Source: Minisyncoccia bacterium (GTDB lineage Bacteria > Patescibacteriota > Minisyncoccia > Phycocordibacterales > XYD1-FULL-46-19). From it: 48,369 nt of DNA. The stretch's first letter is position 1. Each line of letters begins with the position of its first letter. Under the pieces are notes generated by a model. It was not told where the DNA came from, made no database searches, and was given only the letters and a program-made list of their open reading frames with translations. The DNA lies in the NCBI GenBank assembly GCA_041601795.1, contig JBFIHK010000001.1, positions 1 to 48,369 on the forward strand, written 5' to 3'. A program made the position numbers and the translations under genes. Shown here in pieces: positions 831-45,578 of this stretch.

Positions 831-836
831 TCTATC

Positions 837-6956: not shown

Positions 6957-6978
6957 AAAATAACTCCATGACAAGAAA

Positions 6979-9633
6979 CTAGTCCTTGTGTTTTTTATTT
7001 TTCGCTTGTTTTAATATTTTATTTAAATAAAAACCAGTATGGGTGTCTGTTTGGGCTATTTCTTCTGGAGTACCCTTGGCCACTAGCTTCCCCCCTCCAG
7101 AACCCCCTTCTGGTCCCATATCTATAACATAATCAGCATTTTTAATCACATCTAAATTATGTTCAATTACAACCACCGTATTACCTTTATCAACTAAACG
7201 TTGTAAAATGGCTACCAAATTTTTAACATCTTCATAATGAAGACCCACTGTTGGCTCATCTAAAATATAAATGGATTTTTGTACAAACGGACGATACAAT
7301 TCTGAAGATATTTTAACCCTTTGGGCTTCTCCGCCAGACAAAGTGGTGGCCGACTGACCAAGTTCTAAATAACCCAAGCCAACTTCATTTAAGGTTTTCA
7401 AACGATCGCTAATGGCTGGAATATCACGAAAAAATTCAAATGCCTCCTCAACCGTCATATGTAAAACATCGCTAATATTTTTATTTTTATATTTTACCTC
7501 TAAAGTCTCTTTTTGGAATCGACTTCCTAAACAAACATCACAAGTCACATAAACTGTTGGCAAAAAATGCATTTCAACGGCAATAGTACCGTTTCCTCCA
7601 CAAGCTTCACAACGTCCACCTTTGACATTAAAAGAAAAACGTCCGGGTTTCCACCCTCTGACTCTAGCTGTTTCTGTACTAGCAAAAACTTCTCTAATCC
7701 AAGTAAAGGCACCAGTATAAGTGGCTGGATTAGACCGTGGAGTCCGCCCAATAGGAGACTGATCGATCAAAATAGAGCGTCCTAAATATTCACTACCAGC
7801 AAACTCGTCACAATTAAAAATTTCATTTGATCTAGCTTTTCGATTAAACTTAGCTTGAAGATTTTTATATAAAATTTCATAGACAAAACTAGATTTACCC
7901 GAACCAGACACTCCGGTAATAGCTACCAATTTACCTAAAGGAACATCAACATTTAAATTTTTAATATTAAAAATTTTACCTCCCTTTACTCTTAACTTAC
8001 CCTTATTAGCTTTTCTTCTAGTTTCTGGTAAAGGCACTCTCTTTTCACCTCGTAGATAATCTACCGTTAAGGAATTGTAATTATTAGTTTTACTGGTCAA
8101 TAATTTTTCTGTTTTATCTGCTACCACTACACTGCCACCATGAACACCAGCCCCAGGGCCAATGTCAACCAAAAAGTCAGAAGCAAAAATAGTGTCCTCA
8201 TCGTGTTCGACCACAATAATAGTGTTACCCAAATCGCGCAAATCAAGTAGAGTTTGAATTAATTTGTCATTATCTCGACTATGCAAACCAATAGTCGGTT
8301 CATCCAAGACATATAAAGTACCCACCAAACGCGACCCCAATTGAGAAGCTAAGCGAATTCTTTGAGCCTCACCCCCAGATAAAGTATTGGCCCGCCTATC
8401 TAAAGTAATATAATCTAAACCAACATCTAACAAAAATTTAAGCCTAGACTCTATTTCTCTTAAAATCATTTCGGCAATTTGTTTATCTTTTTTACTTAAA
8501 GTTAAATTTTTTATAAATTCACTAGCTTCTTTAATAGACAAACCAGTAAAGCCGACGATGTTTTTTTTATCTTTAGAACTCTCTAAAAACACCTGCAAAG
8601 CCTCCTTCCGCAACCGATAACCACTACAGTCAGGACAAGATTTAGTACTATATAAATTTTTAGTCCCTAAACCATGGCAAGTTGGACACGCTCCATAAGG
8701 TGAATTAAAAGAAAAAAGTCTAGGTTCTATTTCTGGAAAAGAAAAACCATCTCGGGGGCAAGCAAATTTAGCCGACAACAATATTTCAATTAAAGACTCG
8801 GCTAACACATTGTTTTTAAGACTTGCCCGACCAATCACCACTCGAACTAAACCCTCAGATTCATCTAAAGCTCTTTCTACTCCTTCTACTAGCCGACTGT
8901 AAGCATTATCATAAGAAGCTTCTTCTACTTTAGCTTTTAAAGATGTCTTAGTTAAATCTTGAGCCTTAAAATCGGCTATTTCTATTTCATCTATTAATAC
9001 ATCTATATCGTGTTTTTTATTTCGAGCTAACTCTATTCTGTCTCTTAAATTATATCTTTTTTCATCTATCAACACTTCCGAATAACCTTTGTCTAATAAA
9101 TCATACAACAGTTGATAATATTCTCCTTTGCGCCCCCTTATAACTGGAGAGTAAATTTTTACAGTTTCAGCAGTCGGTTTTTTAATATTGTCTTTAATTT
9201 GATCTAAGACAAAATTAACTATTTCATCGTTAGACAATTTATTTATTTCTTGCCCACACAAAGGACAAAAAGGTTTACCGATACGAGCATACAAGACTCG
9301 TAAGTAATCATAAATCTCTGTAATAGTGGCCACAGTTGATCGTGGGTTTTGCGACCTAGATTTCTGGTCAATAGAAATAGCCGGAGACAAACCAGTAATT
9401 TCATCCACTTCTGGTTTTTGCATTTGACGTAAAAATTGCCTTGCATAAGAAGATAAAGATTCAACATAGCGTCTTTGTCCCTCGGCAAAAATAGTATCAA
9501 AAGCAAGACTTGATTTACCTGAACCAGACAGTCCAGCAATAACTACCATCTCGTCGCGGGGTATTTCTAAGTCTATATTTTTTAAATTATGTGTCTTAGC
9601 TCCTTTAATTGTTATTTTTTTCTCGTCTTTCAC
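6979..9633 (-). CDS. uvrA: excinuclease ABC subunit A
   Basis: 884 aa, GTG start. Two ABC modules (GLSGSGKSS, GVSGSGKSS; two LSGGEAQR signatures) and zinc-finger Cys pairs. Confidence 0.95.
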   Translation of the reverse strand: MKDEKKITIKGAKTHNLKNIDLEIPRDEMVVIAGLSGSGKSSLAFDTIFAEGQRRYVESLSSYARQFLRQMQKPEVDEITGLSPAISIDQKSRSQNPRSTVATITEIYDYLRVLYARIGKPFCPLCGQEINKLSNDEIVNFVLDQIKDNIKKPTAETVKIYSPVIRGRKGEYYQLLYDLLDKGYSEVLIDEKRYNLRDRIELARNKKHDIDVLIDEIEIADFKAQDLTKTSLKAKVEEASYDNAYSRLVEGVERALDESEGLVRVVIGRASLKNNVLAESLIEILLSAKFACPRDGFSFPEIEPRLFSFNSPYGACPTCHGLGTKNLYSTKSCPDCSGYRLRKEALQVFLESSKDKKNIVGFTGLSIKEASEFIKNLTLSKKDKQIAEMILREIESRLKFLLDVGLDYITLDRRANTLSGGEAQRIRLASQLGSRLVGTLYVLDEPTIGLHSRDNDKLIQTLLDLRDLGNTIIVVEHDEDTIFASDFLVDIGPGAGVHGGSVVVADKTEKLLTSKTNNYNSLTVDYLRGEKRVPLPETRRKANKGKLRVKGGKIFNIKNLNVDVPLGKLVAITGVSGSGKSSFVYEILYKNLQAKFNRKARSNEIFNCDEFAGSEYLGRSILIDQSPIGRTPRSNPATYTGAFTWIREVFASTETARVRGWKPGRFSFNVKGGRCEACGGNGTIAVEMHFLPTVYVTCDVCLGSRFQKETLEVKYKNKNISDVLHMTVEEAFEFFRDIPAISDRLKTLNEVGLGYLELGQSATTLSGGEAQRVKISSELYRPFVQKSIYILDEPTVGLHYEDVKNLVAILQRLVDKGNTVVVIEHNLDVIKNADYVIDMGPEGGSGGGKLVAKGTPEEIAQTDTHTGFYLNKILKQAKNKKHKD

Positions 9634-10615: not shown

Positions 10616-12634
10616 TTAATCTAAATTTAATAACGCCTTAATCTCATCTCTAAGCATAGCTGCCGTCTCAAAATCTAAAACTTTAATTGCATCCGACATT
10701 TCTTTTTCTTTAGTGGTAATTATTTTTTTCAAAGCTCTTTTATCACTACCGATAGCTATTTTGTCTAACTCAACCAAACGTTGAACAGCTTTTTGCCTGT
10801 CACTTTTTATACCCTCAGTAATATCTTCAATGTTTTTCTTAATACTAATAGGAGTTAAGCCGTGTTTCTTATTATGAGCCATTTGCAAAGTTCGGCGCCT
10901 TTTAGTTTCATCAATGGCCTTTTTCATGGAACCAGTAATACTATCGGCATATAAAATAACTCGACCATCTATGTTTCTAGCTGCTCGGCCAATAGTCTGA
11001 ACTAAAGATGTCTCAGACCGCAAGAAACCTTCTTTGTCTGCGTCTAAAATACCAATAAAAGATACTTCGGGTAAATCTAACCCCTCTCGCAATAGGTTAA
11101 CTCCGACCAAAACATCAAAATCCCCTTTACGGAAACTAGATAAAATTTGAATTCTATCTAAAGTTTTTATTTCACTATGTAAATATTCAGCTTTTATTTT
11201 TTTGGCTTTTAAAAATTCACTTAAATCTTCAGCCATTTTTTTAGTTAAAGTAGTCGCAATCACCCGATAACCCTTTTTAATTTCTTTTTCAGCTTCAGCG
11301 ATAAAATCAATTACTTGACCAGGATAAGTATCGGAGCCAATAATTGGCCTGATTTCTAAAACAGGATCAAGGAGCCCAGTTGGTCTAATAATTTGTTCAG
11401 CCACTTGCTTACTTTTTTCAATTTCATATTTACCTGGTGTCGCACTGGTATAAATGACTGGCCCTACTCTTTCTGTAAATTCATCAAATTTTAAAGGTCT
11501 ATTGTCTAAAGCGCTAGGCAACCTAAAACCATATTCAATTAAAGTTTTTTTTCGACTCTGATCACCAGCATACATAGCCCCAATTTGAGACACTGTAACA
11601 TGGGATTCATCTATAATAGTTAAAAAGTCTGGTGAGCCATCCTTTTTTTTAGGAAAATAAGACAATAATGTATCTGGGGCCTCACCCTTATTCCGCCCGG
11701 ACAAATGGCGGGAATAATTTTCTATACCATTACAATAGCCAATTTCAGCCATCATAGCCATGTCATACTTAGTTCGTCTTTTTATTCTCTCAGCCTCTAA
11801 AGATTGACCTCGGTCTGTAAAATATTTTAATTGATCTTTTAATTCGGCTGAAATAGAACTTAAGGCCTGTTGTCTCATTTCTGGTGTAGTCACGAAATGT
11901 TTAGCTGGAAACAAAAAAAAGTTTTTAGGTTCACTTACCACCCCTCTTGTTATAGAATCCAAATGTAAAATTTGATCTATTTGATTACCTAAAATTCTAA
12001 TATTATAAATCTCTTTTTCAGACGGAGGCATAATTTCAATAGAATTACCTATAGCTCTAAAAGTACCAGGGGTTAAATCGGCATTGGTTCGTTCATAAAA
12101 AATACTCACTAATTTTTTTATAAAATCATTTCTAGAAATTTTTTCTCCTTGCTCAATTAACAAATGTTCTTTTTTATATTCAGCTGGACTACCTAAACCA
12201 TAAATACAAGAAACTGAAGCAACAATAATAACATCCTGTCTAGTCAACAAAGCTTGAGTAGAAGCATGGCGAAGACGCTCTATCTCCTCATTAATAGAAG
12301 CATCTTTTTCAATATAGGTATCGGTTATAGGCATATAAGCCTCAGGTTGATAATAATCATAATAAGAAACAAAATAATGAACAGCATTATCGGGGAAAAA
12401 AGTTTTATACTCTTGAGCTAGTTGAGCTGCTAGTGTTTTATTATGCGCAATAACTAAAGTCGGCTTATTAATTTGGGCAATTATATTAGCAGCGGTAAAA
12501 GTCTTGCCCGATCCAGTCACACCCAAAAGAGTCTGGTGATTAAAACCAGATTTTAAACCCACAACCAACTTATCTATGGCTTGAGGTTGGTCACCAGCAG
12601 GCTTATAGTCACTTTTTAAATTAAAAATAGCCAC
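10616..12634 (-). CDS. uvrB: excinuclease ABC subunit B
   Basis: 672 aa, GTG start. KPAGDQPQAI, Walker A GVTGSGKT, DESH box and C-terminal UVR motif FETAAMLRDEI. Confidence 0.95.
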   Translation of the reverse strand: MAIFNLKSDYKPAGDQPQAIDKLVVGLKSGFNHQTLLGVTGSGKTFTAANIIAQINKPTLVIAHNKTLAAQLAQEYKTFFPDNAVHYFVSYYDYYQPEAYMPITDTYIEKDASINEEIERLRHASTQALLTRQDVIIVASVSCIYGLGSPAEYKKEHLLIEQGEKISRNDFIKKLVSIFYERTNADLTPGTFRAIGNSIEIMPPSEKEIYNIRILGNQIDQILHLDSITRGVVSEPKNFFLFPAKHFVTTPEMRQQALSSISAELKDQLKYFTDRGQSLEAERIKRRTKYDMAMMAEIGYCNGIENYSRHLSGRNKGEAPDTLLSYFPKKKDGSPDFLTIIDESHVTVSQIGAMYAGDQSRKKTLIEYGFRLPSALDNRPLKFDEFTERVGPVIYTSATPGKYEIEKSKQVAEQIIRPTGLLDPVLEIRPIIGSDTYPGQVIDFIAEAEKEIKKGYRVIATTLTKKMAEDLSEFLKAKKIKAEYLHSEIKTLDRIQILSSFRKGDFDVLVGVNLLREGLDLPEVSFIGILDADKEGFLRSETSLVQTIGRAARNIDGRVILYADSITGSMKKAIDETKRRRTLQMAHNKKHGLTPISIKKNIEDITEGIKSDRQKAVQRLVELDKIAIGSDKRALKKIITTKEKEMSDAIKVLDFETAAMLRDEIKALLNLD

Positions 12635-12811
12635 GATTATAATGTAACATAAAATAATTAAATTTATGGCCGACGTAGAGTAAAAAAAAATAGTACTCTT
12701 ATCTTGTCCTCCGTGCCAATGACAACAAAAAGGTCACTTGTCTGCCAGGTAAGCAAGAAGCGAATTCTAAGCAAGTCTAAGGGTTTATCCTAGGATTGAA
12801 TACCCCCTTTT

Positions 12812-12857
12812 AAAAAACCCCGGGTGCCGGACATACAATTCCTGCTTTCACCCGAGG
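12812..12857 (-). terminator. rho-independent terminator after tgt and the 38-aa ORF
   Basis: Minus strand 9-bp stem CCUCGGGUG/CACCCGGGG (one G-U pair) with a 22-nt loop, followed by U6. Confidence 0.55.
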
Positions 12858-12865
12858 CTCTTCCC

Positions 12866-12982
12866 CTAAATCATGGCTACTGCAGCCAGCATGATAAATA
12901 CTATCAAACTGACAACTGCGACCGATAAGTAAATAACTATTCTTTCTAACTTTTTGTACCTAGTTTCATTATCAGACACCAT
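12866..12982 (-). CDS. 38-aa single-pass membrane peptide (below the ORF-track cut-off)
   Basis: AAGGAG 4-5 nt upstream of ATG at 12982. MVSDNETRYKKLERIVIYLSVAVVSLIVFIMLAAVAMI. The terminator follows directly. Confidence 0.4.
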   Translation of the reverse strand: MVSDNETRYKKLERIVIYLSVAVVSLIVFIMLAAVAMI

Positions 12983-13086
12983 GTTCTCCTTCTACGCTAA
13001 AGACCAAATTTAAACTTCTCTTAGTTAAACTATAACGAAAATAACATGTTTCTAACATCTAGTCAAAAAATAACTAGCTTGTTTAT

Positions 13087-14295
13087 CTAGAATTTAGTTT
13101 TTAAATATAAATTTAAAAAATCTTGTCTAAAACTGTCAAAACTATCGTCCAAAATGGACTGTCTAATATCATCTGTCAATTTAATAATAAAATGTAAGTT
13201 ATGAATAGAAGCCAGTGTCGCCCCCAACATCTCATGAGCCCGGAAAAGATGGGCTAGATAACCAGCCGTATAATTAGTACAAGTATAACAAGAACAATCT
13301 TTTTCTAAAGGTGAAAAATCTTCTTTATATTTTTGATTTAAAATATTAATTTTCCCCTTTTTGGTATATAAAGTACCATTGCGAGCAATACGAGTCGGAG
13401 TCACACAGTCAAAAGTATCCATACCCGCTTCAACACCTAGAAAAATATCTTCAGGTTCTCCAATACCTAATAAGTGGCGCGGTTTACTTTCTGGTAGGAC
13501 GCTAGTAGTTGTCCTTAAAACTTGACCTAAATCACTTTTAGAAAAAGAGCCTCCAATACCAAAACCAGCCAAATCATCTAACCCAGCCAAAAAATGAGCC
13601 GACTCTTGTCTTAAATCTTCATATTGACCTCCTTGGACTATACCAAATAAACCCTGCTTACACTTGGCAGTTTTATTTTTAATATGGGCCTCTATACTTC
13701 GCTCCGCCCACCTGTGGGTTCTAATTAAAGCCTTTTTTTGATAATCATAAGACACAGCCGGAGAAGTACATTCATCAAAAGCAAAAATAATATCTGCCCC
13801 TAAATTATGTTGAATATCAATAGATTTTTCTGGATCTAAACGATGACAACTACCGTCAATGTGAGACTTAAAAGTCACCCCATTGTCATCAATTTGAGCC
13901 AATTTTTCAGTTTGAGGCATTTTACTGTTTGTATCTGCACTGCCACCATCTTTAGCAAACTTGGTCACTCCACCTTCACCAAAAGCAGCTCCTAAAGAAA
14001 AAACTTGAAACCCACCAGAATCTGTAAACATAGGGCCGTCATAATTCATAAACTTATGTAAACCACCAGCTTGTTTAATTATTTTGTCTCCCGGTTGCAA
14101 ATATAAATGATAAGTATTAGCCAATATAGTTTGAGCGCCTAAAGATTTTACTTGCTCTGGAGTTAAAGCCTTAACTGTGGCTTTAGTACCCACAGTCACA
14201 AAAGCCGGGGTTTTTATTTCACCATGTAAAGTGGAAATAGCCCCCGCTCGCATACTATTTTTAGCTTGATCTATTTTAAAATTTATTGGCTTCAT
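13087..14295 (-). CDS. tgt: queuine tRNA-ribosyltransferase (tRNA-guanine transglycosylase)
   Basis: 402 aa. TPAFVTVGT, FTDSGGFQ, LFGIVQGG and zinc site CSCYTCTNYTAGYLAHL. Confidence 0.95.
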   Translation of the reverse strand: MKPINFKIDQAKNSMRAGAISTLHGEIKTPAFVTVGTKATVKALTPEQVKSLGAQTILANTYHLYLQPGDKIIKQAGGLHKFMNYDGPMFTDSGGFQVFSLGAAFGEGGVTKFAKDGGSADTNSKMPQTEKLAQIDDNGVTFKSHIDGSCHRLDPEKSIDIQHNLGADIIFAFDECTSPAVSYDYQKKALIRTHRWAERSIEAHIKNKTAKCKQGLFGIVQGGQYEDLRQESAHFLAGLDDLAGFGIGGSFSKSDLGQVLRTTTSVLPESKPRHLLGIGEPEDIFLGVEAGMDTFDCVTPTRIARNGTLYTKKGKINILNQKYKEDFSPLEKDCSCYTCTNYTAGYLAHLFRAHEMLGATLASIHNLHFIIKLTDDIRQSILDDSFDSFRQDFLNLYLKTKF

Positions 14296-20157: not shown

Positions 20158-21210
20158 TTATTTGTCCAACACCACCGGTTGGTACATTTCAAGTAAAGTA
20201 AAAAATAAACTTAAAATAAGTGGCCCATACAAAAAACCTAAAGGACCGAAGGTCAAAATACCACCTAAAACAGAAACTAAAATTAAAATAGGGTGTATTT
20301 TAACTCCTCGGGAGTAAAAATAAGGAATCATAATATTATCAACTAAGCCCACCACTACAATACCCCAAACAGCTAGCCCTAAAGCCATTAATCCACTTGA
20401 ACTAAAGAATAAATAAACAACCGCAGGCAATATAACAATAGCTGTTCCCAATCCTGGAACCAAAGAACCAATAGCAGCTATAACCCCCCATAAAGTAGCA
20501 TTAGGTACTCCAAAAATAAATAATCCTAAACCAGTAAAAAAACCTTGTAATAAAGCCACCACTAAGGCACCTCTAATAACTGAATTTATAGTATTTTCTA
20601 ATTTTTTAATAATTTTTTCATCGTCCACATCCTTCAAAGGACTAATTTCTACAATATATTTTTTTAATCTACCTCCATCTTTAAATAAGAAGAAAAGTAA
20701 TATGATAGACAAAACAAACCCAAAAATAGTATGAAGAGCTGTAATGGTGCCACTTTTCAATAAAGTCCAATTGTCTAACACTACAGATAGTACCGTTGAA
20801 GAAGTTTTCTGTTTGAGGTCGTCTATGTTGCCAAGAGTAAAATTTGGTAATATGTTTTGAACTGTTTCTTCTATTGTCAAAACAGCTTGATCAATTAAAT
20901 TCTCAGTATCAGAAGCTACTATATACCCTGCTACATTTTGACCCTCTTTTATAATTTGAGTAGAAACAAAAAATAAAGGTAGTATTACTACTACAGCTAT
21001 AATAAAAATAGTCGTTAAACTAGCCACTGCAGGCCACTTTTTAATGTGGCTTAAAATATTAATATAAAAAGGTTTGAAAATAACTGCCACCACTAAAGCA
21101 AAAGCAATACTATTAAAAAATGGAGTAAAAATAAATACTACTAAAGCCATGGACCCAAACAAAAGAAACCCGAAAAAATAACTTTGAATGCGTTCTTGTT
21201 TTTTTGTCAT
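20158..21210 (-). CDS. AI-2E family transporter (PerM/UPF0118)
   Basis: 350 aa, about 8 TM. Gly-rich C-terminal core GSLVPGLGTAIV...GPLGFLYGPLILSLF typical of the family. Confidence 0.85.
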   Translation of the reverse strand: MTKKQERIQSYFFGFLLFGSMALVVFIFTPFFNSIAFALVVAVIFKPFYINILSHIKKWPAVASLTTIFIIAVVVILPLFFVSTQIIKEGQNVAGYIVASDTENLIDQAVLTIEETVQNILPNFTLGNIDDLKQKTSSTVLSVVLDNWTLLKSGTITALHTIFGFVLSIILLFFLFKDGGRLKKYIVEISPLKDVDDEKIIKKLENTINSVIRGALVVALLQGFFTGLGLFIFGVPNATLWGVIAAIGSLVPGLGTAIVILPAVVYLFFSSSGLMALGLAVWGIVVVGLVDNIMIPYFYSRGVKIHPILILVSVLGGILTFGPLGFLYGPLILSLFFTLLEMYQPVVLDK

Positions 21211-21263
21211 AATAAAATTATACCACTAGTTATTTTTTTTACTTGCAAACTTATAAACAGTTT

Positions 21264-21292
21264 TAAAAAAACACCCCGAAGGGTGTTTTTTT
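21264..21292. terminator. bidirectional hairpin terminator
   Basis: ACACCC-cgaa-GGGTGT stem-loop flanked by A7 and T7 runs. Confidence 0.7.
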
Positions 21293-21317
21293 AAAAACTT
21301 TTTGATTGTAAATTTAA

Positions 21318-21668
21318 TTACTTCTTGTCAGCTATCTTTTTTATATCAGCTTGAATGTGCTTCCAATATTTTTGTAAATCTTTTTTTAACATTAAAGCAT
21401 CTTTTTCTCCCACATTTTTTAATTTAGCATATTTGGCCACCACCTTTTCCGCTGCTAAATCATAGTTAGTCTTAGTGACCTCTTTCATTTTTTCTATTTC
21501 AGACAACATATCACCCCGAGCTTTTATCATCCAAGATTTAATTTGTTTACGATTTTTTTCGCCTTCAGGACCATATAATAAATAACCCCCGGCAATAGCT
21601 GCTACCGCCCCCACCCCTAAAGCAATTCCTGCTCCAAAAGCTGATTTTTTATTTGTTTTTTTAGCCAT
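21318..21668 (-). CDS. YtxH-like small stress-type protein
   Basis: 116 aa. Gly-zipper N-terminal segment GAGIALGVGAVAAIAGGYLLYGPEGEKNRK followed by a charged helix. Confidence 0.55.
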   Translation of the reverse strand: MAKKTNKKSAFGAGIALGVGAVAAIAGGYLLYGPEGEKNRKQIKSWMIKARGDMLSEIEKMKEVTKTNYDLAAEKVVAKYAKLKNVGEKDALMLKKDLQKYWKHIQADIKKIADKK

Positions 21669-21701
21669 AAGTTTAACGATAATTATTAATTTATTGATAA
21701 T

Positions 21702-22007
21702 TTATTTCTTTTTTTTACCACTAGCATTTTCCATAAGCATATTAACAACCTTTTTAAAGGTCAAGGCTCCTAAAAGCATTCTTAATTGCTTTTTAGTCGT
21801 CGCTACACCTTCTTTTATATCATCTCTAGCATCATCAATATCATCAGCTATTTTAACAGATTCGCTGTAAACAACATCAGATATTTTATTTAGATTTTTT
21901 AAAATTTTTATCACATAAATAAGACCAACCACCAGCAAAAGAAGCAAAATAACTTCTGTCAGGCCAGTGATAAAAATAAAAATTGGAGAAGATATAATTT
22001 CAGTCAT
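21702..22007 (-). CDS. DUF948-like membrane-anchored helical protein
   Basis: 101 aa. N-terminal TM plus an acidic helical region. Pairing with a YtxH-like gene is a common arrangement. Confidence 0.45.
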   Translation of the reverse strand: MTEIISSPIFIFITGLTEVILLLLLVVGLIYVIKILKNLNKISDVVYSESVKIADDIDDARDDIKEGVATTKKQLRMLLGALTFKKVVNMLMENASGKKKK

Positions 22008-37721: not shown

Positions 37722-38714
37722 CTAAAAACTATCCCACATATCTTTATTTTCTTGACCTAAAGCCCATAGGGAAATTCCTCTAAGATTGTACTTGTCGACT
37801 AATTTTAATTTAGCCCTAAACCCAGCTGGCCCGTCACACCAAGTTAAATAAGCATTGCCACTTGGGACTATATAGGCACTATATTCTGATTCCAAACCTT
37901 CTATATAACCCTGTAACAGAAGTTGGGACTTATCAATATCATCTTTAACGTCATCATGAGACAGCTCACCAAATTGTTTATAACCACCAGAGAGTCGCCA
38001 TTTAGAACAATAAAAGGCTATGCCTAGTTGAAGTTTATTCTTAGGCACGATAGTAGTCATGAAATCTAACACTGCTTGCTGGTAAAGAAGAGAACCTGTT
38101 GGGCCAAATGAATTAGGATCATTATAGGCCATGGCTACTAAATAATCAGCCGCTTCAGCCAATTTTTCATAGTCATAGGCAGCAGTTAAATCTTGATTGA
38201 TAGCCTTGGGGTTATAAGGAGTAGTCCGAGGAATAACCGCCACGCTAAATTCTAAATTGGCCTTTTTAAATTCTTTTCCAGCTTTCTCTACAAACTTAGT
38301 GTAAGCATTTCTGTCAGCTGAAGAAATATATTCAAAATCAAATTGCCAGCCAGCATAATCTTCATCCTGGGCTTCATCTATTAGGTCATCAATAATATCA
38401 TTTTGAATATTTTCAGCGGCCAATATTTTAGACATTAAAGTTCGACTAAAGTCTTGCTGAAAAACAAGGGGCACAACTTTAACTTTTTTATTATGGGCCC
38501 TTTTTATCACCCCCTTATCATTAGTTTTTTTAAGATCAAAATCATAATCAATATAATAAACTTGAGGCGACACCACATCTATAGACTTATAATTAGTTTT
38601 GAAACTTTTATCACCCGTACCATTGTTATAAAAATAAGCTTGCACCACTTGAGCAAAGCTTGTAACAGGAAACAATAAAGACACCAATATTAAAACAAGA
38701 AAAATATTTTTCAT
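37722..38714 (-). CDS. exported glycoside hydrolase family 18-like protein
   Basis: 330 aa. Signal peptide MKNIFLVLILVSLLFPVTSFA and YAGWQFDFEY (the DxE end of the GH18 DxxDxDxE motif). Confidence 0.65.
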   Translation of the reverse strand: MKNIFLVLILVSLLFPVTSFAQVVQAYFYNNGTGDKSFKTNYKSIDVVSPQVYYIDYDFDLKKTNDKGVIKRAHNKKVKVVPLVFQQDFSRTLMSKILAAENIQNDIIDDLIDEAQDEDYAGWQFDFEYISSADRNAYTKFVEKAGKEFKKANLEFSVAVIPRTTPYNPKAINQDLTAAYDYEKLAEAADYLVAMAYNDPNSFGPTGSLLYQQAVLDFMTTIVPKNKLQLGIAFYCSKWRLSGGYKQFGELSHDDVKDDIDKSQLLLQGYIEGLESEYSAYIVPSGNAYLTWCDGPAGFRAKLKLVDKYNLRGISLWALGQENKDMWDSF

Positions 38715-38722
38715 ATTCTTAC

Positions 38723-38751
38723 ATTATCAAGAATGCTAGAAGTAAATGCAA
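38723..38751 (-). promoter_or_regulatory. candidate promoter of the GH18-like gene, near-leaderless geometry
   Basis: Minus strand TTGCAT-N17-GATAAT. Only 8 nt separate the -10 from the ATG at 38714, with no SD. Confidence 0.35.
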
Positions 38752-38939
38752 CTAGCTAAATTACTACTAGTAACCCTTCCAGCATCAAAGCCTTCACTTC
38801 GTTTGTCTTTGCTAGCCTCATCGGATTCGGATATTTTCATACCAAGCCCCATAAGGCTTTTTTAATTAAATAAATTATAGCATTTTGACCCTCTTCGGAA
38901 TGGTATAAAAAGAGACAAAAGCGACACTGGGAACGTTTT

Positions 38940-40538
38940 TTATTCGTAACCTCTACTAATTGCAGATTCAAGTGTATTGTAAACAATTGGCATTTTATTT
39001 TTAAAATCTTCTAAAGTTATTGATTCTGCAACACTAACCGCATATGATATTTTTTCATCACTCGAGATTTCATCTTTCTCTTTTTTATGATCTTCAGGAT
39101 AATATTCTTCAATGGTTTCAGTTTCTAGTATATGTATTTGTTCTCCTTCTTTTAACCAAGGATGTGCTTCTTTAAACTTTGTAAAATTAGACTCTTGTTC
39201 GGAATTAGGTAAATCTAAAAGAAAAACTACCTTGTCTTTATATACACCATTGGTCAAAAGAGGTGTGTAGCACTGGTTTATTGCATGATAAATCTCTTTA
39301 TGTTTTTCAGAATCACCACGAGCAAATATTATTTTAATATTTAAACATTTCTTATTTTCACTATAAAATCTTTCAATAATTTTATTTATAAAATGATATT
39401 CAGTTTGACCTTCTACAATTATAAAATTACTTGGTAATAATAAATCATTTGGACTACCTCCCAGTAATTGATAAATAGAATTTAATCTATCCTGTTCGCT
39501 TTCCACTTTCTCTAACCTAGAATCACCTTCTATCTTAACAACATTGAATATATTTTGATTTTCATAATTTTCATTAGCAAAAACTGAAGAATGGGTATTT
39601 ATAAAAACCTGACCACCATTATCAATAATATCTCTAAGAGCTTTTTTTAATGATCTTTGTGCTGACGGGTGTAAATGTAGTTCGGCTTCATCAATTAAAA
39701 ATATGAAATTTCTAGCAATACCTTGTTCTTTTCTATAGTCTGCATATGATTGAATGATTGCTAGCATTATTGCACGCTGCATACCATCTCCTTTATTTTC
39801 TGCTTTAGTCTTTATGCCATCATCTATTTCAGTATCAAAGCCTTTTAACATGTCCTCAATCTTTGGATTCTGTATACTAAAATCGACAGTAGTATCTTCG
39901 GAAAATTGTTTTTGAAGATAAAATTCAACTTTCTTCTCTAGAGAGTCTACTGAATTTCTAAAAACAGATCCTTCAGAATTAAACAACTCATCAAATAGTT
40001 TTATGAACTCCTTGTATTTAGGATCATTATTTATTACATCTGATAAAACACCAGACAACATCTCAGCAATTGGGGTTTTTGATTTATAACCAGAAACATC
40101 TCCTAACTTTATCTTAGTAGTAACATATTCTATTTTAGGTAAAAAATAATTTAATGCTGCATCAAAACCTGTAGGATTTCCCACACTTTCTCCATTTACA
40201 ATCATAAACCTTTTATCATCTTCGCTAGTCTTCTCTAAAATAAATTCGTCGTTTTCTCCGAGCACGTTTTCGATTACTTTCTTGTATCTTTCATTTTCCA
40301 GATTTTCTAAAGAACTTCCGACATTACTATAGTGGACCCTTATCTTAATAGGATTTGTTTTCTGATGTTTATAATAGTTGGAGTCCACAGTTTTTCCAGA
40401 ATCAAACCAATCTAGAGCTTCAAACAAATTTGTTTTACCATGATTATTTTGACCAACAAATACGTTAAAATCATTTACATCAAAATCATATCTCTTAATT
40501 GATCTAAAATTTTCAATTTCTATCCTAGTAATTTTCAT
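38940..40538 (-). CDS. OLD-family-like ATPase-Toprim nuclease
   Basis: 532 aa. IEIENFRSI, Walker A GQNNHGKTN, signature-like GDGMQR, Walker B FLIDEAELHLHP, INTHSS, then the Toprim-type IIVEGQTEYHF. Confidence 0.75.
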   Translation of the reverse strand: MKITRIEIENFRSIKRYDFDVNDFNVFVGQNNHGKTNLFEALDWFDSGKTVDSNYYKHQKTNPIKIRVHYSNVGSSLENLENERYKKVIENVLGENDEFILEKTSEDDKRFMIVNGESVGNPTGFDAALNYFLPKIEYVTTKIKLGDVSGYKSKTPIAEMLSGVLSDVINNDPKYKEFIKLFDELFNSEGSVFRNSVDSLEKKVEFYLQKQFSEDTTVDFSIQNPKIEDMLKGFDTEIDDGIKTKAENKGDGMQRAIMLAIIQSYADYRKEQGIARNFIFLIDEAELHLHPSAQRSLKKALRDIIDNGGQVFINTHSSVFANENYENQNIFNVVKIEGDSRLEKVESEQDRLNSIYQLLGGSPNDLLLPSNFIIVEGQTEYHFINKIIERFYSENKKCLNIKIIFARGDSEKHKEIYHAINQCYTPLLTNGVYKDKVVFLLDLPNSEQESNFTKFKEAHPWLKEGEQIHILETETIEEYYPEDHKKEKDEISSDEKISYAVSVAESITLEDFKNKMPIVYNTLESAISRGYE

Positions 40539-40569
40539 AATCTGATTGTAGCAAATACAACCAATTATA

Positions 40570-40911
40570 TTAAGTAATTAGACTGTGTAGTTCATTAAAA
40601 CCGACTGGTTCACAATCAAACTTCTTCAGCCTTGAAAGTGAAACACTAGCTCCATTATTAGAAATTTCCTTTAGCCTGTCTTTTGAAAGAACATAAAACT
40701 CCCATTGATTCATATCTAGAATATCTAGTGTCTTGTGATCTTGATGCTTAAATAGAGACAACACATAAACATCAGCTTTATAATCTTTCTCGGCTTTTAC
40801 CTCAGATTGTTTCTTTACAACAGAGTAGTAATGGGTACCAAAGAAAAAATAGAGGTCAAAGATATTGACATACGAAATTATATGAAATATCTCCTGAAAG
40901 AGGGTTCTCTT
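40570..40911 (-). pseudogene. 5'-truncated PD-(D/E)XK-like nuclease remnant
   Basis: The frame is open for 113 codons, but the first usable start is the GTG at 40764, downstream of the nuclease-like core NIFDLY...SEVKA. C-terminal part ADVYVLSLFKHQDHKTLDILDMNQWEFYVLSKDRL. Confidence 0.35.
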
Positions 40912-40978
40912 TTAGAAAAAAGAGAACTACTTGGATGTATCAAAGGTAAGATTATTTTAAATAATAAAAAAGTCTCAA

Positions 40979-41740
40979 TTATTTAGAAGGCCTTGTGTTT
41001 GTAAACTCATCTAACTTGTCAGGATGTTCTTTTAAAAGATAGCGCTGGATAACTAAATTCATGTAAGAGTTTTTTAATCTAAAAGCTCTAACCTCTGCAG
41101 GTTTATCACTAAAAGGTTGTGAGGTTTTAGATTTACCACAAGAAGGATCTTTAAATTTACCATTATGTTTAGGGCAAAGGGTTAGATATTTATGTTGGTG
41201 TTGATGTATTTCATGTGCCTCACCATTCTTTATGAATTCTATAATCTTTAAGTAATCTTCATTCAGTTCTTCAAGAACTTCTTCTGTCATTTCCCAAATG
41301 AATACATACTTGATTAAATATTTTGACCTAGGGACTTCCTTGTCATGAACATACCAAACGAACAGGATTTTTTTATTCTTCTTATACAAAGATGATTCTT
41401 TAATATGTTTATTGTTATGCTCTTCAGAATAATTAATGATATTCAAAGAAAGTGGTTCTTTGACCGTAAGTCTTCCGTTCTTTAATAATTTGAGCGGACT
41501 AGTCTTCAGTTCAACATCTAAGTGTTCTATGTCTGCACCTGCTGTACTATTCTTAGGTATACCAAAATAACCGTATTCAATAGCATATCCGACTCCAGCC
41601 TTAGTAAGGACTCGACTACTTTCGTCATCATCTACAATAGAAGACATAATTTCTTCTAGTGTCCTTCCCTCTAAATCTTTCTGGGCAATTTTCTCTAATT
41701 CCTTAACAGTCTTTATTTGCTTTAAATTTAGCTTTGACAT
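40979..41740 (-). CDS. MutH/Sau3AI-fold endonuclease, single domain (candidate restriction subunit)
   Basis: 253 aa. KAGVGYAIEYGYFG...GADIEHLDVELKT gives D70-x6-E77-x-K79, the same spacing and numbering as E. coli MutH D70/E77/K79. Confidence 0.85.
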   Translation of the reverse strand: MSKLNLKQIKTVKELEKIAQKDLEGRTLEEIMSSIVDDDESSRVLTKAGVGYAIEYGYFGIPKNSTAGADIEHLDVELKTSPLKLLKNGRLTVKEPLSLNIINYSEEHNNKHIKESSLYKKNKKILFVWYVHDKEVPRSKYLIKYVFIWEMTEEVLEELNEDYLKIIEFIKNGEAHEIHQHQHKYLTLCPKHNGKFKDPSCGKSKTSQPFSDKPAEVRAFRLKNSYMNLVIQRYLLKEHPDKLDEFTNTRPSK

Positions 41741-41804
41741 ATATAGAGAAATATACTAAAAATCTTGATCTTACACAATTTATGTGGCACAAATTATAGA
41801 CAGC

Positions 41805-41833
41805 TTGATCGAAAATTATAAGAATGTTAATAT
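41805..41833 (+). promoter_or_regulatory. candidate methyltransferase promoter whose -35 hexamer contains GATC
   Basis: TTGATC (41805-41810)-N17-TAATAT (41828-41833). The ATG at 41844 follows 10 nt after the -10. Confidence 0.35.
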
Positions 41834-41843
41834 GATAATACTT

Positions 41844-43109
41844 ATGAAAAAACCAATTAAAAAAATAAGAGTCGTTGAGTTATTTGCTGGTGTCGGTGGC
41901 TTTAGACTTGGACTAGAAGGCCATAAAGGAAGCAGGAAGTCTCATCATAATAATTATGAAACTATTTGGTTCAATCAGTGGGAGCCATCCACAAAAAGAC
42001 AACATGCTCATGAAACTTATGTAAAGAATTTTGGAGATGTAGATGAGTATACAAATATTGATGTAGCAAAAGTTACAGATAAGGTTCCTGACCACGACCT
42101 ACTAGTTGGTGGATTTCCTTGTCAGGATTACTCCGTAGCGAGAAATCTATCTTCTTCTGCAGGACTTGAGGGAAAGAAAGGTGTTCTATGGTGGTCGATC
42201 TATAACATCTTAGAAAAGAAAGGAAAGAAAGCTCCTGATTATTTGATGCTAGAAAATGTAGATAGACTTCTAGTGTCTCCAGCTTCTAGAAGAGGTCGTG
42301 ATTTTGCGATTATACTTTCTTCATTAAACAAACTTGGGTATATGGTTGAATGGCGAATTATTAATGCCGCAGAATATGGATTTCCTCAAAGAAGGAAAAG
42401 GATTTTTATAATGGGATATAAAAAGGGTTCGGAAATTGAAAAGAAATTTAAGAAAGAGAAAGATGTAGAAAAATGGCTTAGCAAAACAGGTCTTACTCAA
42501 AAAGCATTTCCTGCAAATATTGTAAGTGGTTTTAATTATTTTGAATTAAATTCTGACCCTGTTGAAGTGTCTAATAATTTCAATACAGAAAATCCAAAAA
42601 CATCACCATTTCAAAATAGTGGAATAATGTTTGATGGAAAAGTTTACACAGCAAAAACAAAAGAAAATTACATAGGAAAATTCGTAACACTTGGAGACAT
42701 TCTGATTTCAGACAAAGAAGTTCCTGAAGAGTATTACATCAACAAAGATGACTTAAAAAAATGGAAATATTTGAAAGGAGCAAAAAATGAGCCTCGAAAA
42801 GCAGCCAGTGGTTTTGAATTCATATACAAGGAAGGATCTATGACATTCCCAGACGCATTAGATAGGGCCTCTAGGACAATCATTACTGGTGAAGGTGGAC
42901 CAACACCATCTAGGTTCAAGCATGTTATTGAAACAAAGAAAGGTTTACGCAGATTAACACCCATTGAACTAGAAAGATTGTGTATGTTCCCTGATTACCA
43001 CACAGATGGTCACACTGACTCAAAACGAGCTTTCTTTATGGGTAATGCTTTGGTTGTTGGAGTTATAGACAGATTAGGTAAAGTCTTGGCAGATTTACAC
43101 AATAGTTAA
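41844..43109 (+). CDS. DNA (cytosine-5)-methyltransferase
   Basis: Motif I ELFAGVGG, IV GGFPCQDYS, VI LENV, VIII QRRKR and X GNALVV. Start ambiguous: ATG 41844, ATG 41832 or GTG 41784. Confidence 0.9.
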   Translation: MKKPIKKIRVVELFAGVGGFRLGLEGHKGSRKSHHNNYETIWFNQWEPSTKRQHAHETYVKNFGDVDEYTNIDVAKVTDKVPDHDLLVGGFPCQDYSVARNLSSSAGLEGKKGVLWWSIYNILEKKGKKAPDYLMLENVDRLLVSPASRRGRDFAIILSSLNKLGYMVEWRIINAAEYGFPQRRKRIFIMGYKKGSEIEKKFKKEKDVEKWLSKTGLTQKAFPANIVSGFNYFELNSDPVEVSNNFNTENPKTSPFQNSGIMFDGKVYTAKTKENYIGKFVTLGDILISDKEVPEEYYINKDDLKKWKYLKGAKNEPRKAASGFEFIYKEGSMTFPDALDRASRTIITGEGGPTPSRFKHVIETKKGLRRLTPIELERLCMFPDYHTDGHTDSKRAFFMGNALVVGVIDRLGKVLADLHNS

Positions 43110-43112
43110 AAA

Positions 43113-44888
43113 TTAGGTGAAGTGTTCAACCAAATCTGTTATTAAATTATCACTTTTATAATAACCAATAGGATTAAATTCCTTAGTTTTGGTATCAAAA
43201 TAAATCAAATTTTCTTTTTTCAAGAAAGCTTTTTCTTCAAACTTTTTCCATTTATCCAAAGTAGCCTCAACCACTTCTTTAAGTTCATTTTTCTTCCACG
43301 AAGTTCCAATCAAAGTATATGTAGCTATCATAGTTACAGCAATGTCACCATATCTTAAACCAAATCCACATTTACCAACAAACCATCCATTAACAGGTTT
43401 TCTAGCTTGTTTTTTTAATAGCTGAACCTCTCGATAAACGAGGTATGAAAGAACATATTTAGAGTAGTTGCTTTTAGTAGTAAGTATCTTAAATATTTCA
43501 TCTGAAAATAGAAAGTCTTCAGATAAATTTTTAGGGTTTTTAATTTTCTCAGGAAAGCCTGAGGCATAGGCCATTTTTATAAATTCATTACGATTAATCA
43601 CGTCCTCTTTCTTAATATACAAATTATTAAGACTGTTTAAAAATTCTCCTTTTTTTCTTTCATAATACAAGTCAAATTCTTCAAATATGTACTTCTGAAG
43701 AGCTGCTTGAGAATCATGATTAGACAATAAATCTCCCTTACTAATTGAGGATTGATTATTAGTAGCTAATGAAACTGGACCAGTAATATTATTGTATTTC
43801 TCAGTATCATTCTGAACAATTACTTTCAATAAGACTTCTTTATCTTTGAAAGGATTTTTTGCAAACTCTTTTTTTAAAAATCTTTTATATATATGACTTA
43901 GTGTAAATGATGTTTGACCACCATTAATGATTTGAGGGTCTTTTATTGTTATCTCACCAGTTCTTTTTTTACCAGTATTTTCTGTATACAAGGATTCTGT
44001 AGAGAGCATAGTAATTCCGTTGTTCAATAAAACAAAATCATTGGTATCCTTCTTGAGAATAGAATCTTCAATCTTTTTGTTAACACCCTTAGCATTCATA
44101 CCCAGATAAGTTCTTGGATTATATTTCAGTATTGAATTCTTATATCTAGTAAGTGCCTTTGCTATTTCTTCAGTAGGAATAAATATCATAAATATTGTAC
44201 ATACCCCATATTCTGTCTTTACTTCATAATTAATCGGTTTTTTATCAGCACTCGATAACAAAATATTGAAACTCAACTTATTTTCATTAAAAAAGTCATC
44301 TCTGATATAAGGAAAAAGTAATTCATCATAAACCTTATAATAATTAAAAACTTTGATATCCCATTCTTTTGGAAAATGAGTAGTGAGTATATATTTTTTT
44401 TGTAATTCAGTGAGATTAGCCACGAGTACAACCACAAATTTATACTCTGAAGGATTTTTTAAATTTCTTAACTTCTTTTGAAACTCAAGAATCTTTTTAT
44501 TATACTGATGCCCATCAAAGCTCTTTTTCTCACCAGTGGTGACTCTTTCTAAATCCATCCTCCATAAATCCTTGTTATCTATGTCAGTTTTTACATAACC
44601 CCTAGCACTGTTTCTGAATTTTGCCTGAATTAAATAAACTAACTTTTCCTCATTATTTATATAGTACGCATCAATACCACCATCATTAGCTCCTTCAGTA
44701 ACCAGATTCTCTCTTTGTTTAAAATCTAAAATACCAAAGTAACTTTTAATAAAAAAATGTATCAGGGCCCTTGACCTCGCACCCTCGATGTCAACCTTAC
44801 CGTTCTCAGGTAGATATAAATCTAAATTAGATTCTGCATTGACTCTTATTTTATCAATGATTTTTACTAAGACGTTATATTTATTCAT
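43113..44888 (-). CDS. AIPR family abortive-infection protein with Mrr-like N-terminal nuclease motif
   Basis: 591 aa. N-terminal GANDGGIDAYY...YLIQAKF (Mrr-cat-like D...QxK) and AIPR core NPRTYLG...VNKKI...LLNNGITM...IINGGQTS. Confidence 0.85.
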   Translation of the reverse strand: MNKYNVLVKIIDKIRVNAESNLDLYLPENGKVDIEGARSRALIHFFIKSYFGILDFKQRENLVTEGANDGGIDAYYINNEEKLVYLIQAKFRNSARGYVKTDIDNKDLWRMDLERVTTGEKKSFDGHQYNKKILEFQKKLRNLKNPSEYKFVVVLVANLTELQKKYILTTHFPKEWDIKVFNYYKVYDELLFPYIRDDFFNENKLSFNILLSSADKKPINYEVKTEYGVCTIFMIFIPTEEIAKALTRYKNSILKYNPRTYLGMNAKGVNKKIEDSILKKDTNDFVLLNNGITMLSTESLYTENTGKKRTGEITIKDPQIINGGQTSFTLSHIYKRFLKKEFAKNPFKDKEVLLKVIVQNDTEKYNNITGPVSLATNNQSSISKGDLLSNHDSQAALQKYIFEEFDLYYERKKGEFLNSLNNLYIKKEDVINRNEFIKMAYASGFPEKIKNPKNLSEDFLFSDEIFKILTTKSNYSKYVLSYLVYREVQLLKKQARKPVNGWFVGKCGFGLRYGDIAVTMIATYTLIGTSWKKNELKEVVEATLDKWKKFEEKAFLKKENLIYFDTKTKEFNPIGYYKSDNLITDLVEHFT

Positions 44889-44962
44889 AATAATGAATCA
44901 TACCAAATAACAGAGTTTTATATAATTGAAGCACCTCGTACTCCGAACCTACCTCACACTAG

Positions 44963-45033
44963 CTGCCGGACTAGGACTCGAACCTAGATTAACTGGACCA
45001 AAACCAGTCGTCCTACCATTAGACGATCCGGCA
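44963..45033 (-). tRNA. tRNA-Gln (anticodon UUG), CCA not encoded
   Basis: Reverse complement TGCCGGATCGTCTAATGGTAGGACGACTGGTTTTGGTCCAGTTAATCTAGGTTCGAGTCCTAGTCCGGCAG. U1:A72 and G73 as in bacterial tRNA-Gln, anticodon loop UUUUGGU, T-loop TTCGAGT. Confidence 0.9.
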
Positions 45034-45101
45034 ATGAAAAAATCGTCAAATTATTTTACTTTTGTATTTTGCTATATTTTAAGACTAAATGCAATTTAAA
45101 A

Positions 45102-45578
45102 TTAAAAGTGGCTAAATTTAACCTTGTCACCTATTTTAATTTGGGCTTTTTTAGCTACCCCACTGTTTACCTCAAGCACATACTCAACTGGCACGAGCGG
45201 TGAATAGAAAACTGGTTCATTGGGGTCAAAAAAATAAGACACATTATGTTCTACCCCTGCCACTTGCCCATCTGTAATCCAAATAATGTCTATGGGAAAA
45301 TTCATGTCTGGCATCCAAAAGCGATGCCGAGCTTTTTCAGGAAAAATAAATAACATACCAGTACCAACTGGCAAAAACTTTCGCCCCGACAAACCTTTAA
45401 CTCTAGCCTGTGGGGTAGTGGCTAGCTCTACTTTAAAACTAGTATTATTAATCGACACCATAGGAACATTTGCCACTTCAACTTCTTTTTGATCAAAAAA
45501 ATAATTTTGAACATACACAAAACCCCCACCAATAATAAAAAAAGTGATAAATATAATAGAAACTGGTTTTAAAGTCAT
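45102..45578 (-). CDS. DUF192 domain protein
   Basis: 158 aa. N-terminal TM, then RVKGLSGRKFLPVGTGMLFIF...FWMPDMNFPIDIIWI. Confidence 0.8.
   Translation of the reverse strand: MTLKPVSIIFITFFIIGGGFVYVQNYFFDQKEVEVANVPMVSINNTSFKVELATTPQARVKGLSGRKFLPVGTGMLFIFPEKARHRFWMPDMNFPIDIIWITDGQVAGVEHNVSYFFDPNEPVFYSPLVPVEYVLEVNSGVAKKAQIKIGDKVKFSHF

Follow-up and report, generated by a model that had tools for sequence, protein, structure and literature searches.

AbiUi of Lactococcus, a member of the AIPR/AbiU family, resembles a nuclease by structure prediction and causes a modest drop in plating efficiency together with a delay in phage transcription (PMC13064643), and AIPR genes are common in restriction-modification (RM) operons (PMC2292703, PMC7593597, PMC5608340), with one example in Staphylococcus pseudintermedius, where the neighbour is a GATC-specific MboI/DpnII-type system (PMC7593597), and another in Prevotella intermedia (PMC5608340). 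The C-terminal MutH-like domain of Sau3AI has no catalytic role and acts as an effector that lifts autoinhibition, and MutH itself needs MutL (bioRxiv 10.64898/2026.04.21.719898). A report on CfrBI describes a divergent methyltransferase/endonuclease gene pair with a shared promoter region which carries the system's own site and is controlled by methylation (bioRxiv 10.64898/2025.12.04.692298). Class 1 OLD nucleases are recognized by the lack of a UvrD-like helicase downstream (PMC7049728). Here we compare with these systems a 6.3-kb block at positions 38715-45033 of a 48,369-nucleotide stretch of DNA (the window) from an uncultured candidate phyla radiation (CPR) bacterium, in which an OLD gene, a MutH-like endonuclease gene, a C5 cytosine methyltransferase gene and an AIPR gene lie next to tRNA-Gln. 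A previous sequence-only reading of the window had described the block as four nuclease-type immunity modules stacked in a single unnamed arrangement without any integrase. The genes it named were all recovered by open reading frame (ORF) analysis, Pfam, PADLOC, NCBIfam and ARAGORN.

The block is probably a degraded, horizontally acquired serine-recombinase islet that carries three functionally separate modules of known kinds, an RM cassette, AIPR and OLD. Islets of this type in CPR/Patescibacteria are built around a large serine recombinase of ~440 amino acids and are usually located just downstream of a tRNA gene. The principal result is thus a correction, in which an apparent integrase-less stack of four nucleases becomes a decayed serine-recombinase islet with three known modules. 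Nothing here is likely to come as a great surprise to a specialist in defence systems, and each part belongs to a known kind. Some interest attaches to the strict coupling of AIPR and methyltransferase in a CPR clade, the abundance of single-domain Sau3AI relatives and an invariant pair of GATC sites in the control region.

The 440 bp between the OLD and endonuclease genes contain two gene remnants arranged tail to tail. The plus-strand remnant is 55-78% identical to the C-termini of recombinases on contigs L083, L086, L082 and L089 (E 1e-14 to 1e-27; L-numbers are labels of contigs compared with the window), a family of the Resolvase, Recombinase and Zn_ribbon type whose members share 54-71% identity among themselves. 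It overlaps the 3' end of the endonuclease gene by 8 bp and, likewise, the recombinase is convergent with a slight overlap on other CPR contigs. Intact recombinases of 425-441 amino acids are located beside the same endonuclease in L083, L086 and L195, and intact members are also found beside OLD homologues in L185 and L187. In L089 the recombinase is a 263-amino acid remnant lacking the Resolvase domain, and in L082 a 139-amino acid C-terminal recombinase ORF lies near the contig end. Collinear nucleotide homology between L089 and the window stops at window position 40822. The minus-strand remnant is 34-39% identical to the C-termini of hypothetical plasmid proteins of ~197 amino acids (tblastn, E down to 1e-9); the N-terminal part of this family is absent and the remnant abuts that of the recombinase. 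Both remnants have lost their 5' parts at one junction, ~40805-40820, suggesting that one deletion truncated a pair of divergent genes, for the recombinase and for the ~197-amino acid protein, at their 5' ends, which would have fixed the islet in place. The claimed lack of an integrase is therefore true only of an intact gene, as the C-terminal 60 codons of a serine recombinase remain, and the decayed gene fragments mentioned in the same reading are present and include these codons.

The possibility that the endonuclease is a truncated pseudogene, its C-terminal domain having decayed into the adjacent fragments, was considered and rejected, because the fragments match the recombinase and the ~197-amino acid family instead and because the best 120 of its 237 homologues (E <= 1e-5), mostly from Patescibacteria with one Nanoarchaeota cluster, are themselves 223-286 amino acids long.

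Integrative islands combine foreign composition with excess similarity to elements in other genomes, and both are present here. GC content is 31.0% within the block, 34.8% outside the block and 34.3% over the whole window, with the OLD and AIPR genes at 29.1% each, and strand-symmetric tetranucleotide deviation is the highest of the contig over the block (z 2.0-3.3 in 4-kb windows at 38-45 kb). The GC shift, which spot counts had suggested earlier, is only modest. The lowest GC content of the contig, 28.8-29.6%, occurs below that of the island at window positions 20500-22000. The missing Shine-Dalgarno (SD) sequences and promoter-proximal starts, previously regarded as special to the island, are the same in its neighbours: GH18 (glycoside hydrolase family 18), dnaX, dus and the carboxypeptidase genes lack an SD motif as do the island genes, AGGAG being observed only at DUF192, and a TATAAT likewise lies within a few bases of the dnaX ATG.

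Excess similarity is seen in the cassette. The methyltransferase is 90% identical to that of L195 and 85% to that of L089 and the endonuclease 83% and 75%, respectively, compared with 47-52% for dnaX and dus to L089 and L092. L179 has the closest dnaX (52%) yet the most distant cassette, at 41% for AIPR, 58% for the methyltransferase and 30% for the endonuclease, and the nearest relative of AIPR is in L092, those of the methyltransferase being in L195 and L089. Cassette identity far above that of housekeeping genes, combined with these incongruent similarities, indicates horizontal transfer and modular exchange of the cassette genes. Inheritance of the block as ancestral chromosomal content, passed on vertically at dnaX-tRNA-Gln, is improbable. 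AIPR, methyltransferase and endonuclease genes do follow dnaX-tRNA-Gln in four lineages (window, L089, L092/L099 and L179), no attachment (att) repeats were found and the GC shift is small, all of which would fit such descent. The incongruence seen in L179, and in L089 where dnaX is 47% but the methyltransferase 85% and the endonuclease 75% identical, does not, nor do the shared location of the nearest methyltransferase and endonuclease relatives with an intact recombinase on one IMG/VR contig, the presence of the same cassette in the unrelated contexts of L082, L083, L086 and L095, the recombinase remnant inside the block and the coincidence of the tetranucleotide outlier with the block. The IMG/VR contig, L195 (IMGVR_UViG_3300022821_001679, positions 1-9140), is classified as viral by IMG/VR. 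Beside the closest methyltransferase and endonuclease it carries an intact 425-amino acid serine recombinase, an SNF2 helicase and an N6/N4 methyltransferase fragment, and may be a provirus or integrative element spreading the cassette.

The preferred reading, acquisition of a recombinase islet, also agrees with the probable insertion site. The tRNA-Gln(UUG) gene lies on the minus strand, which places the block off the tRNA 3' end, and is the likely landmark of insertion. Related islets start at tRNA-Gln(UUG) in L082, L089, L092 and L179 and at tRNA-Gln(CUG) in L187, and others abut tRNA-Asn in L102, tRNA-Ser in L086 and tRNA-Trp in L083. In distant relatives dus-dnaX-tRNA-Gln is kept and is followed by a zeta toxin, an N6/N4 methyltransferase or an efflux system. 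The suggestion of an acquired block at a tRNA-Gln hot spot is supported by deviant composition, excess cassette similarity, variable content downstream of tRNA-Gln and the similar islets which abut tRNA genes in other CPR contigs, and recombinase-driven insertion at tRNA-Gln would explain the arrangement. Comparison with relatives confirms the conserved dus-dnaX-tRNA-Gln and the variable downstream content but did not define an empty site, as the relatives found in a dnaX scan are <=52% identical and differ everywhere in what follows tRNA-Gln. A search of the whole window with the tRNA 3' end, allowing <=3 mismatches, found no second copy, and a direct-repeat search of the block found no bounding repeat. 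Serine recombinases do not require tRNA-derived flanking repeats, so that the missing repeats decide nothing. The best DnaX matches are Paceibacterota and Parcubacteria metagenome-assembled genomes, at <=52% identity to any GTDB species representative; the source bacterium is of the Paceibacterota/Parcubacteria type. Compared with tRNA-targeted islands, the block is similarly lodged at the 3' side of a tRNA, with defence cargo, deviant composition and a recombinase gene, albeit as a remnant. In contrast to such islands, which carry an intact integrase or recombinase, the gene is that of a large serine recombinase rather than a tyrosine integrase, it is reduced to its last 60 codons and bounding repeats are absent.

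The RM cassette comprises the endonuclease and the methyltransferase. The reported MutH-fold nuclease is confirmed (Pfam MutH 6.9e-25), with a stronger match to NCBIfam Sau3AI (6.9e-54) over model positions 7-226 of 475, its score of 183.5 being below the equivalog cut-off of 300. Its alignment with Sau3AI (PDB 4pxg, E 4.3e-27) spans residues 30-243 of the latter, which form the N-terminal catalytic domain, and D70, E77 and K79, forming the D-x6-E-x-K active site, are invariant in 24 family members, two-domain relatives included. The two-domain architecture of ~475-490 amino acids, with its C-terminal MutH-like effector domain, is absent from this 253-amino acid protein. Identification as the mismatch-repair enzyme MutH was rejected, NCBIfam MutH scores of 61.3 and 48.4 bits being far below the cut-offs of 243 and 229.9 and the partner being a C5 methyltransferase. 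The single-domain, MutH-sized relatives of Sau3AI form a real and large family. They are numerous in CPR and DPANN genomes, and as they lack the effector domain considered necessary for activation of Sau3AI, their mode of cleavage is a biochemical question. The system thus resembles Sau3AI, whose recognition site is GATC, in its catalytic domain, D-x6-E-x-K triad, C5 methyltransferase partner and GATC motifs in the control region, and differs from it in lacking the C-terminal domain that relieves autoinhibition, in the divergent orientation of the genes and in the position of its own sites within the promoter region.

The predicted C5 methyltransferase is likewise verified (Pfam DNA_methylase 7.5e-61, 206.8 bits; PADLOC MTase_II 6.9e-164; TIGR00675 226.5 bits), with motifs I FAGVGG, IV PCQ, VI ENV, VIII QRR and X GNA at residues 14, 92, 137, 182 and 400 of the 421-amino acid form. 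Although the longest ORF, 41784-43109 on the plus strand, begins at a GTG, the start is most likely ATG 41844, as suggested by agreement with gene calls elsewhere, including a 421-amino acid call on an identical Logan contig, and by -35 and -10 elements directly upstream. The gene is separated by 103 bp from the divergent endonuclease, and at every such locus examined (window, L082, L083-85, L086-88, L089-91 and L195) the single-domain endonuclease is divergent from a C5 methyltransferase of 413-425 amino acids at a distance of ~100 bp.

This short intergenic region contains CTTGATC motifs at 41764-41770 and 41804-41810. The second motif gives a TTGATC -35 hexamer which, with a 17-nt spacer and a TAATAT -10 element, forms a predicted promoter for the methyltransferase start at ATG 41844; the predicted endonuclease promoter would hold the other GATC site, at the edge between its -35 element and spacer. 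Exactly two GATC sites are present in 8/8 homologous intergenic regions (window, L082, L083, L086, L089, L195, L095 and L092), compared with a background of 0.18 per 100 bp. They are spaced ~40 bp apart and read GATCAA(G) in 7 of these regions, the spacing being 10 bp in L092, and GATCAA is invariant in an intergenic alignment of 61% mean identity. GATC is also the most depleted 4-nt palindrome of the window, with 76 sites observed and 99.9 expected (ratio 0.76). Combined, homology to Sau3AI, the two conserved sites and GATC depletion support GATC as the putative recognition site. The C5 methyltransferase would then shield GATC sites of the host, the catalytic-domain-only endonuclease would cut unmodified GATC and methylation of the system's own sites would adjust the ratio of methyltransferase to endonuclease once the system has entered a new host, in a feedback like that of CfrBI. 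The likeness to CfrBI consists of divergent methyltransferase and endonuclease genes with a short shared promoter region carrying the system's own site. The differences are two sites here and one there, a 5-methylcytosine (m5C) GATC system here, and regulation which here is deduced from motifs. The invariant GATC pair provides a testable case of methylation feedback for an RM system of not-yet-cultured organisms.

The reported AIPR abortive-infection gene was recovered with Pfam AIPR (PF10592; 9.9e-36, 124.4 bits at a cut-off of 25, residues 255-553) and PADLOC AbiU (5.2e-35). A family search returned 1086 matches, proteins of ~600 amino acids with full-length identities of 35-40% for the proteobacterial members. 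The AIPR domain is preceded by an N-terminal domain of ~250 amino acids with the motif D69/D73...Q88-x-K90, the four residues being invariant in the alignment and located on adjacent predicted beta-strands. Pfam matches of this domain in single members are weak (Mrr_cat 0.043, PDDEXK_6 0.024, YhgA-like 0.017). The AlphaFold2 model of the protein has a predicted local distance difference test (pLDDT) score of 87.6, and a Foldseek search with its N-terminal domain placed MspJI at the top (E 0.04) along with EcoO109I, HamA, Avs4 and Can2, none of them significant. A search of PDB with the full model gave no significant match (best E 0.33, ParB-N), and a PDB profile search with AIPR was empty. It is plausible that the N-terminus is a Mrr-like PD-(D/E)xK nuclease. 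The protein resembles AbiUi in being a single large protein with a C-terminal AIPR domain and differs in its N-terminal 250 amino acids, which lie outside the PADLOC AbiU model. The AIPR domain also weakly matches MzaE of the MZA system (E 4.7e-14). Assignment to MZA was rejected, the MzaE score being 51.8 bits with a cut-off of 1050 and the block containing no MzaA-D genes.

The suspected link of AIPR to the methyltransferase proved sound. Among AIPR relatives of at least 40% identity with usable flanks, a member of the methyltransferase family is adjacent in 7/7 contexts and in two gene orders. In subclade A (window, L089, L092 and L095; 55-74% identity), the AIPR and methyltransferase genes converge; 3 bp separate them in the window, and they overlap by 4-8 bp in the other three. 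In subclade B (L102, L179 and L182; 40-42% identity), RadC, AIPR, a Sau3AI-type endonuclease of 338-486 amino acids and the methyltransferase are co-directional, AIPR and endonuclease overlapping by 8 bp in L179 and L182. The endonuclease partner is single-domain in the window and L089, two-domain in L182 and two-domain with an S24 domain in L095, and its slot in L092 is occupied by a different N-terminus of 250 amino acids fused to S24. In contrast, the 85 immediate neighbours of 58 other metagenome AIPR loci included, by Pfam, no C5 and four N6-type methyltransferases. Methyltransferase adjacency of 7/7 compared with 4/58 gives p = 5e-7 in a Fisher test, a value which is indicative only as the loci are not phylogenetically independent. 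Clustering of neighbours at 80 metagenome loci found no conserved partner of the wider AIPR family. The CPR clade, strictly tied to one C5 methyltransferase, differs from most sampled members, which are solitary.

The RM pair, conversely, is found without AIPR in L082, L083, L086 and L195. In these contigs, the slot beside the methyltransferase holds only the tRNA in L082, a MzaB-like GHKL ATPase in L083, small ORFs in L086 and an SNF2 helicase with a 457-amino acid protein in L195. Dependence is thus one-sided, the AIPR clade keeping the methyltransferase and the RM pair doing without AIPR. AIPR would be an accessory dependent on the RM module, whose methyl mark it most likely needs for self-protection, and could serve against phage as a second-line nuclease or as an abortive-infection effector. 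The linkage with the methyltransferase is real, and an association of AIPR with RM has been noted in general terms in the literature.

It is possible, if rather unlikely, that AIPR, the methyltransferase and the MutH-like endonuclease constitute one three-component system in which AIPR is required as an activator or DNA sensor or as a second nuclease using m5C. Several observations point this way. AIPR adjoins the methyltransferase 7/7 across 40-74% identity, in two gene orders, with the 8-bp AIPR/endonuclease overlap and alongside several endonuclease architectures; the two remain together in L092 where the Sau3AI-type endonuclease has been replaced; both MutH and Sau3AI rely on a partner or a domain for activation; and a MutL-like GHKL ATPase occupies the AIPR slot in L083. 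However, the occurrence of the same RM pair without AIPR on four contigs argues that it does not need AIPR. AIPR also accompanies the full two-domain Sau3AI in L182 and L095, which argues against specific replacement of a missing domain, while the position next to the methyltransferase varies in content, as is usual for mosaics of defence islands, and the wider AIPR family is mostly solitary. For the AIPR clade itself, the stronger claim of an obligate, methyltransferase-dependent third component, either a MutL-like trans partner of the endonuclease or a second nuclease gated by m5C, is tentative and we consider it doubtful. If true, it would give the long-uncharacterized AIPR/AbiU family a mechanistic context. 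The family has been without a mechanism since 2001, and a clade bound to a methyltransferase offers a clean test of methyl-mark dependence.

Further observations were made at these loci. The RadC (JAB-domain) gene is located directly upstream of AIPR at L179:6339-7004, L182:6342-6997 and L102:999-1664, overlapping the AIPR start in L179 and L102 and consisting of two split ORFs in L182. The MzaB-like GHKL (MutL-like) ATPase in AIPR's slot, L083:4860-6404 (-), recalls how MutL activates MutH. The two-domain Sau3AI fused to a LexA-type Peptidase_S24 in L095 is 630 amino acids long (11253-13145, +), and the S24 fusion with the 250-amino acid N-terminus lies at L092:13138-14295 (+). The latter, of 385 amino acids, was considered as a decayed Sau3AI and rejected, the S24 peptidase domain being all that it has in common with the L095 fusion. 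A third fusion, of 525 amino acids, joins LexA_DNA_bind, S24 and a C5 methyltransferase (L187:8462-10039, -). These S24-RM fusions in CPR contigs hint at control of RM by autocleavage or of an SOS type.

The reported OLD-like ATPase-Toprim gene was also identified (PADLOC Old 1.9e-59; Pfam AAA_15 and AAA_21), OLD-like_TOPRIM (PF20469) being detected at 23.2 bits, equal to its cut-off. Walker A (GQNNHGKTN, residue 29) and Walker B (LIDEAELHLHP, residue 281) are invariant in homologues. Within residues 370-480, E376, D409, D442 and E477 are invariant in 14 homologues and D442, in LLDLP/LIDKP, is the single invariant Asp in place of the canonical DxD of the Toprim region. The gene is solitary, with 225 non-coding bp and then GH18 downstream and gene remnants upstream. 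No UvrD/PcrA-like helicase, retron or AriB partner is present beside it, and the GajA and AriA models score well below Old. In the absence of a downstream UvrD-like helicase it is class-1-like, sharing with class 1 OLD proteins (P2 Old, Thermus scotoductus, Vibrio cholerae) an N-terminal ABC-type ATPase, a C-terminal Toprim-like region and a solitary location. It differs from these in belonging to a CPR/Bacteroidota subfamily of ~532-537 amino acids, in a Toprim match only at the Pfam threshold with D442 instead of DxD, and in homologues that adjoin a serine recombinase.

Two OLD homologues with 76% and 60% identity (P0241 in L185 and P0273 in L187) are located directly beside a 440-amino acid serine recombinase, partnered by an Eco57I/BpuSI-like RM system in L185 and by the LexA-S24-C5 methyltransferase fusion and a Mrr protein in L187. 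At the nucleotide level, the homology of the window to other loci is divided between two separate blocks, the first (38975-40539, OLD) matching L185 at 74% and the second (40822-45035, from the recombinase remnant to tRNA-Gln) matching L089 at 72.5% over a collinear 4.2 kb. Homology to other OLD loci ends at 38975. The two blocks and the other partners of the homologues establish that OLD is independent cargo of the same kind of element, and it would act on its own as a third immunity module. OLD as part of an AIPR/RM unit was rejected on the homologue contexts and the break in nucleotide homology.

Integration of all four genes, OLD, MutH-like endonuclease, methyltransferase and AIPR, into one new defence system is very improbable. 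All four lie contiguously beside a tRNA within 6.3 kb, and L086 has an OLD-family gene ~6 kb from the same RM pair. This L086 gene, however, is only 27% identical over ~100 residues, both homologue contexts examined (L185 and L187) give OLD other partners, a close OLD homologue and AIPR occur together only on the identical Logan contig, two gene remnants including that of the recombinase separate OLD from the RM pair, and nucleotide homology is split between 38975-40539 and 40822-45035. The separate distributions thus largely refute such a system. The earlier idea of four modules in one unnamed arrangement fails for the same reasons, with OLD homologues in other company and the RM pair present also without AIPR or OLD. 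Its alternative, that PADLOC and NCBIfam would assign every gene to a known kind, held for the assignments (Old, type II restriction endonuclease and methyltransferase, AbiU/AIPR), but the linkage of AIPR and methyltransferase is nonetheless conserved.

Several points weigh against a recombinase islet with three functional modules of known kinds. att sites were not found, and distances to the nearest genomes (dnaX <=52%) are too large for an empty site to be recognized. GATC specificity is based on Sau3AI homology and promoter motifs, and an endonuclease consisting of the catalytic domain without the domain that activates Sau3AI may nick, need a partner or behave otherwise. The PD-(D/E)xK assignment of the AIPR N-terminus is below significance, the AIPR-methyltransferase linkage could stem partly from shared descent of one cassette, several contexts being near dnaX-tRNA-Gln, and the OLD Toprim domain lacks the canonical DxD. 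With these taken into account, the islet remains our preferred reading, and its features are listed in the table.

Features of the block between the GH18 gene and tRNA-Gln, in window positions.
Feature	Positions	Strand	Basis
Left boundary spacer, GH18 start to OLD stop	38715-38939	.	No ORF, no Rfam match
OLD-family ATPase-Toprim nuclease, 532 amino acids, solitary, class-1-like	38940-40538	-	PADLOC Old, Pfam
Remnant, C-terminal ~80 codons and stop of ~197-amino acid hypothetical family	40570-40836	-	tblastn
Remnant, last 60 codons of large serine recombinase	40804-40986	+	55-78% identity to recombinase C-termini
Single-domain Sau3AI/MutH-family type II endonuclease, 253 amino acids	40979-41740	-	NCBIfam, Pfam, PDB 4pxg
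Divergent promoter region (predicted), two CTTGATC motifs	41741-41843	.	Alignment of 8 intergenic regions
C5 cytosine methyltransferase, 421 amino acids from most likely start ATG 41844	41844-43109	+	Pfam, PADLOC, motifs
AIPR/AbiU-family protein, 591 amino acids	43113-44888	-	Pfam AIPR, PADLOC AbiU
tRNA-Gln(UUG), right boundary	44962-45033	-	ARAGORN; Rfam 61.4 bits

The same block genes, with identical proteins, are present on a 6.2-kb Logan contig (L001) from SRR29257383. The housekeeping genes reported on both flanks are in place, DUF192, dnaX and dus on the right and GH18 with two M14 carboxypeptidase genes on the left. The DUF192 gene (45102-45578, minus strand) separates dnaX from tRNA-Gln, with a 4-bp overlap at the dnaX stop; among the distant relatives examined, tRNA-Gln directly follows dnaX and no DUF192 homologue was detected nearby. 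Over 38500-45200, Rfam with permissive thresholds matched the tRNA alone. At 38844-38859, within the spacer between GH18 and OLD, the plus strand has a terminator-like hairpin with a T-run; no plus-strand gene ends there, and the hairpin may be a leftover of the decayed element.

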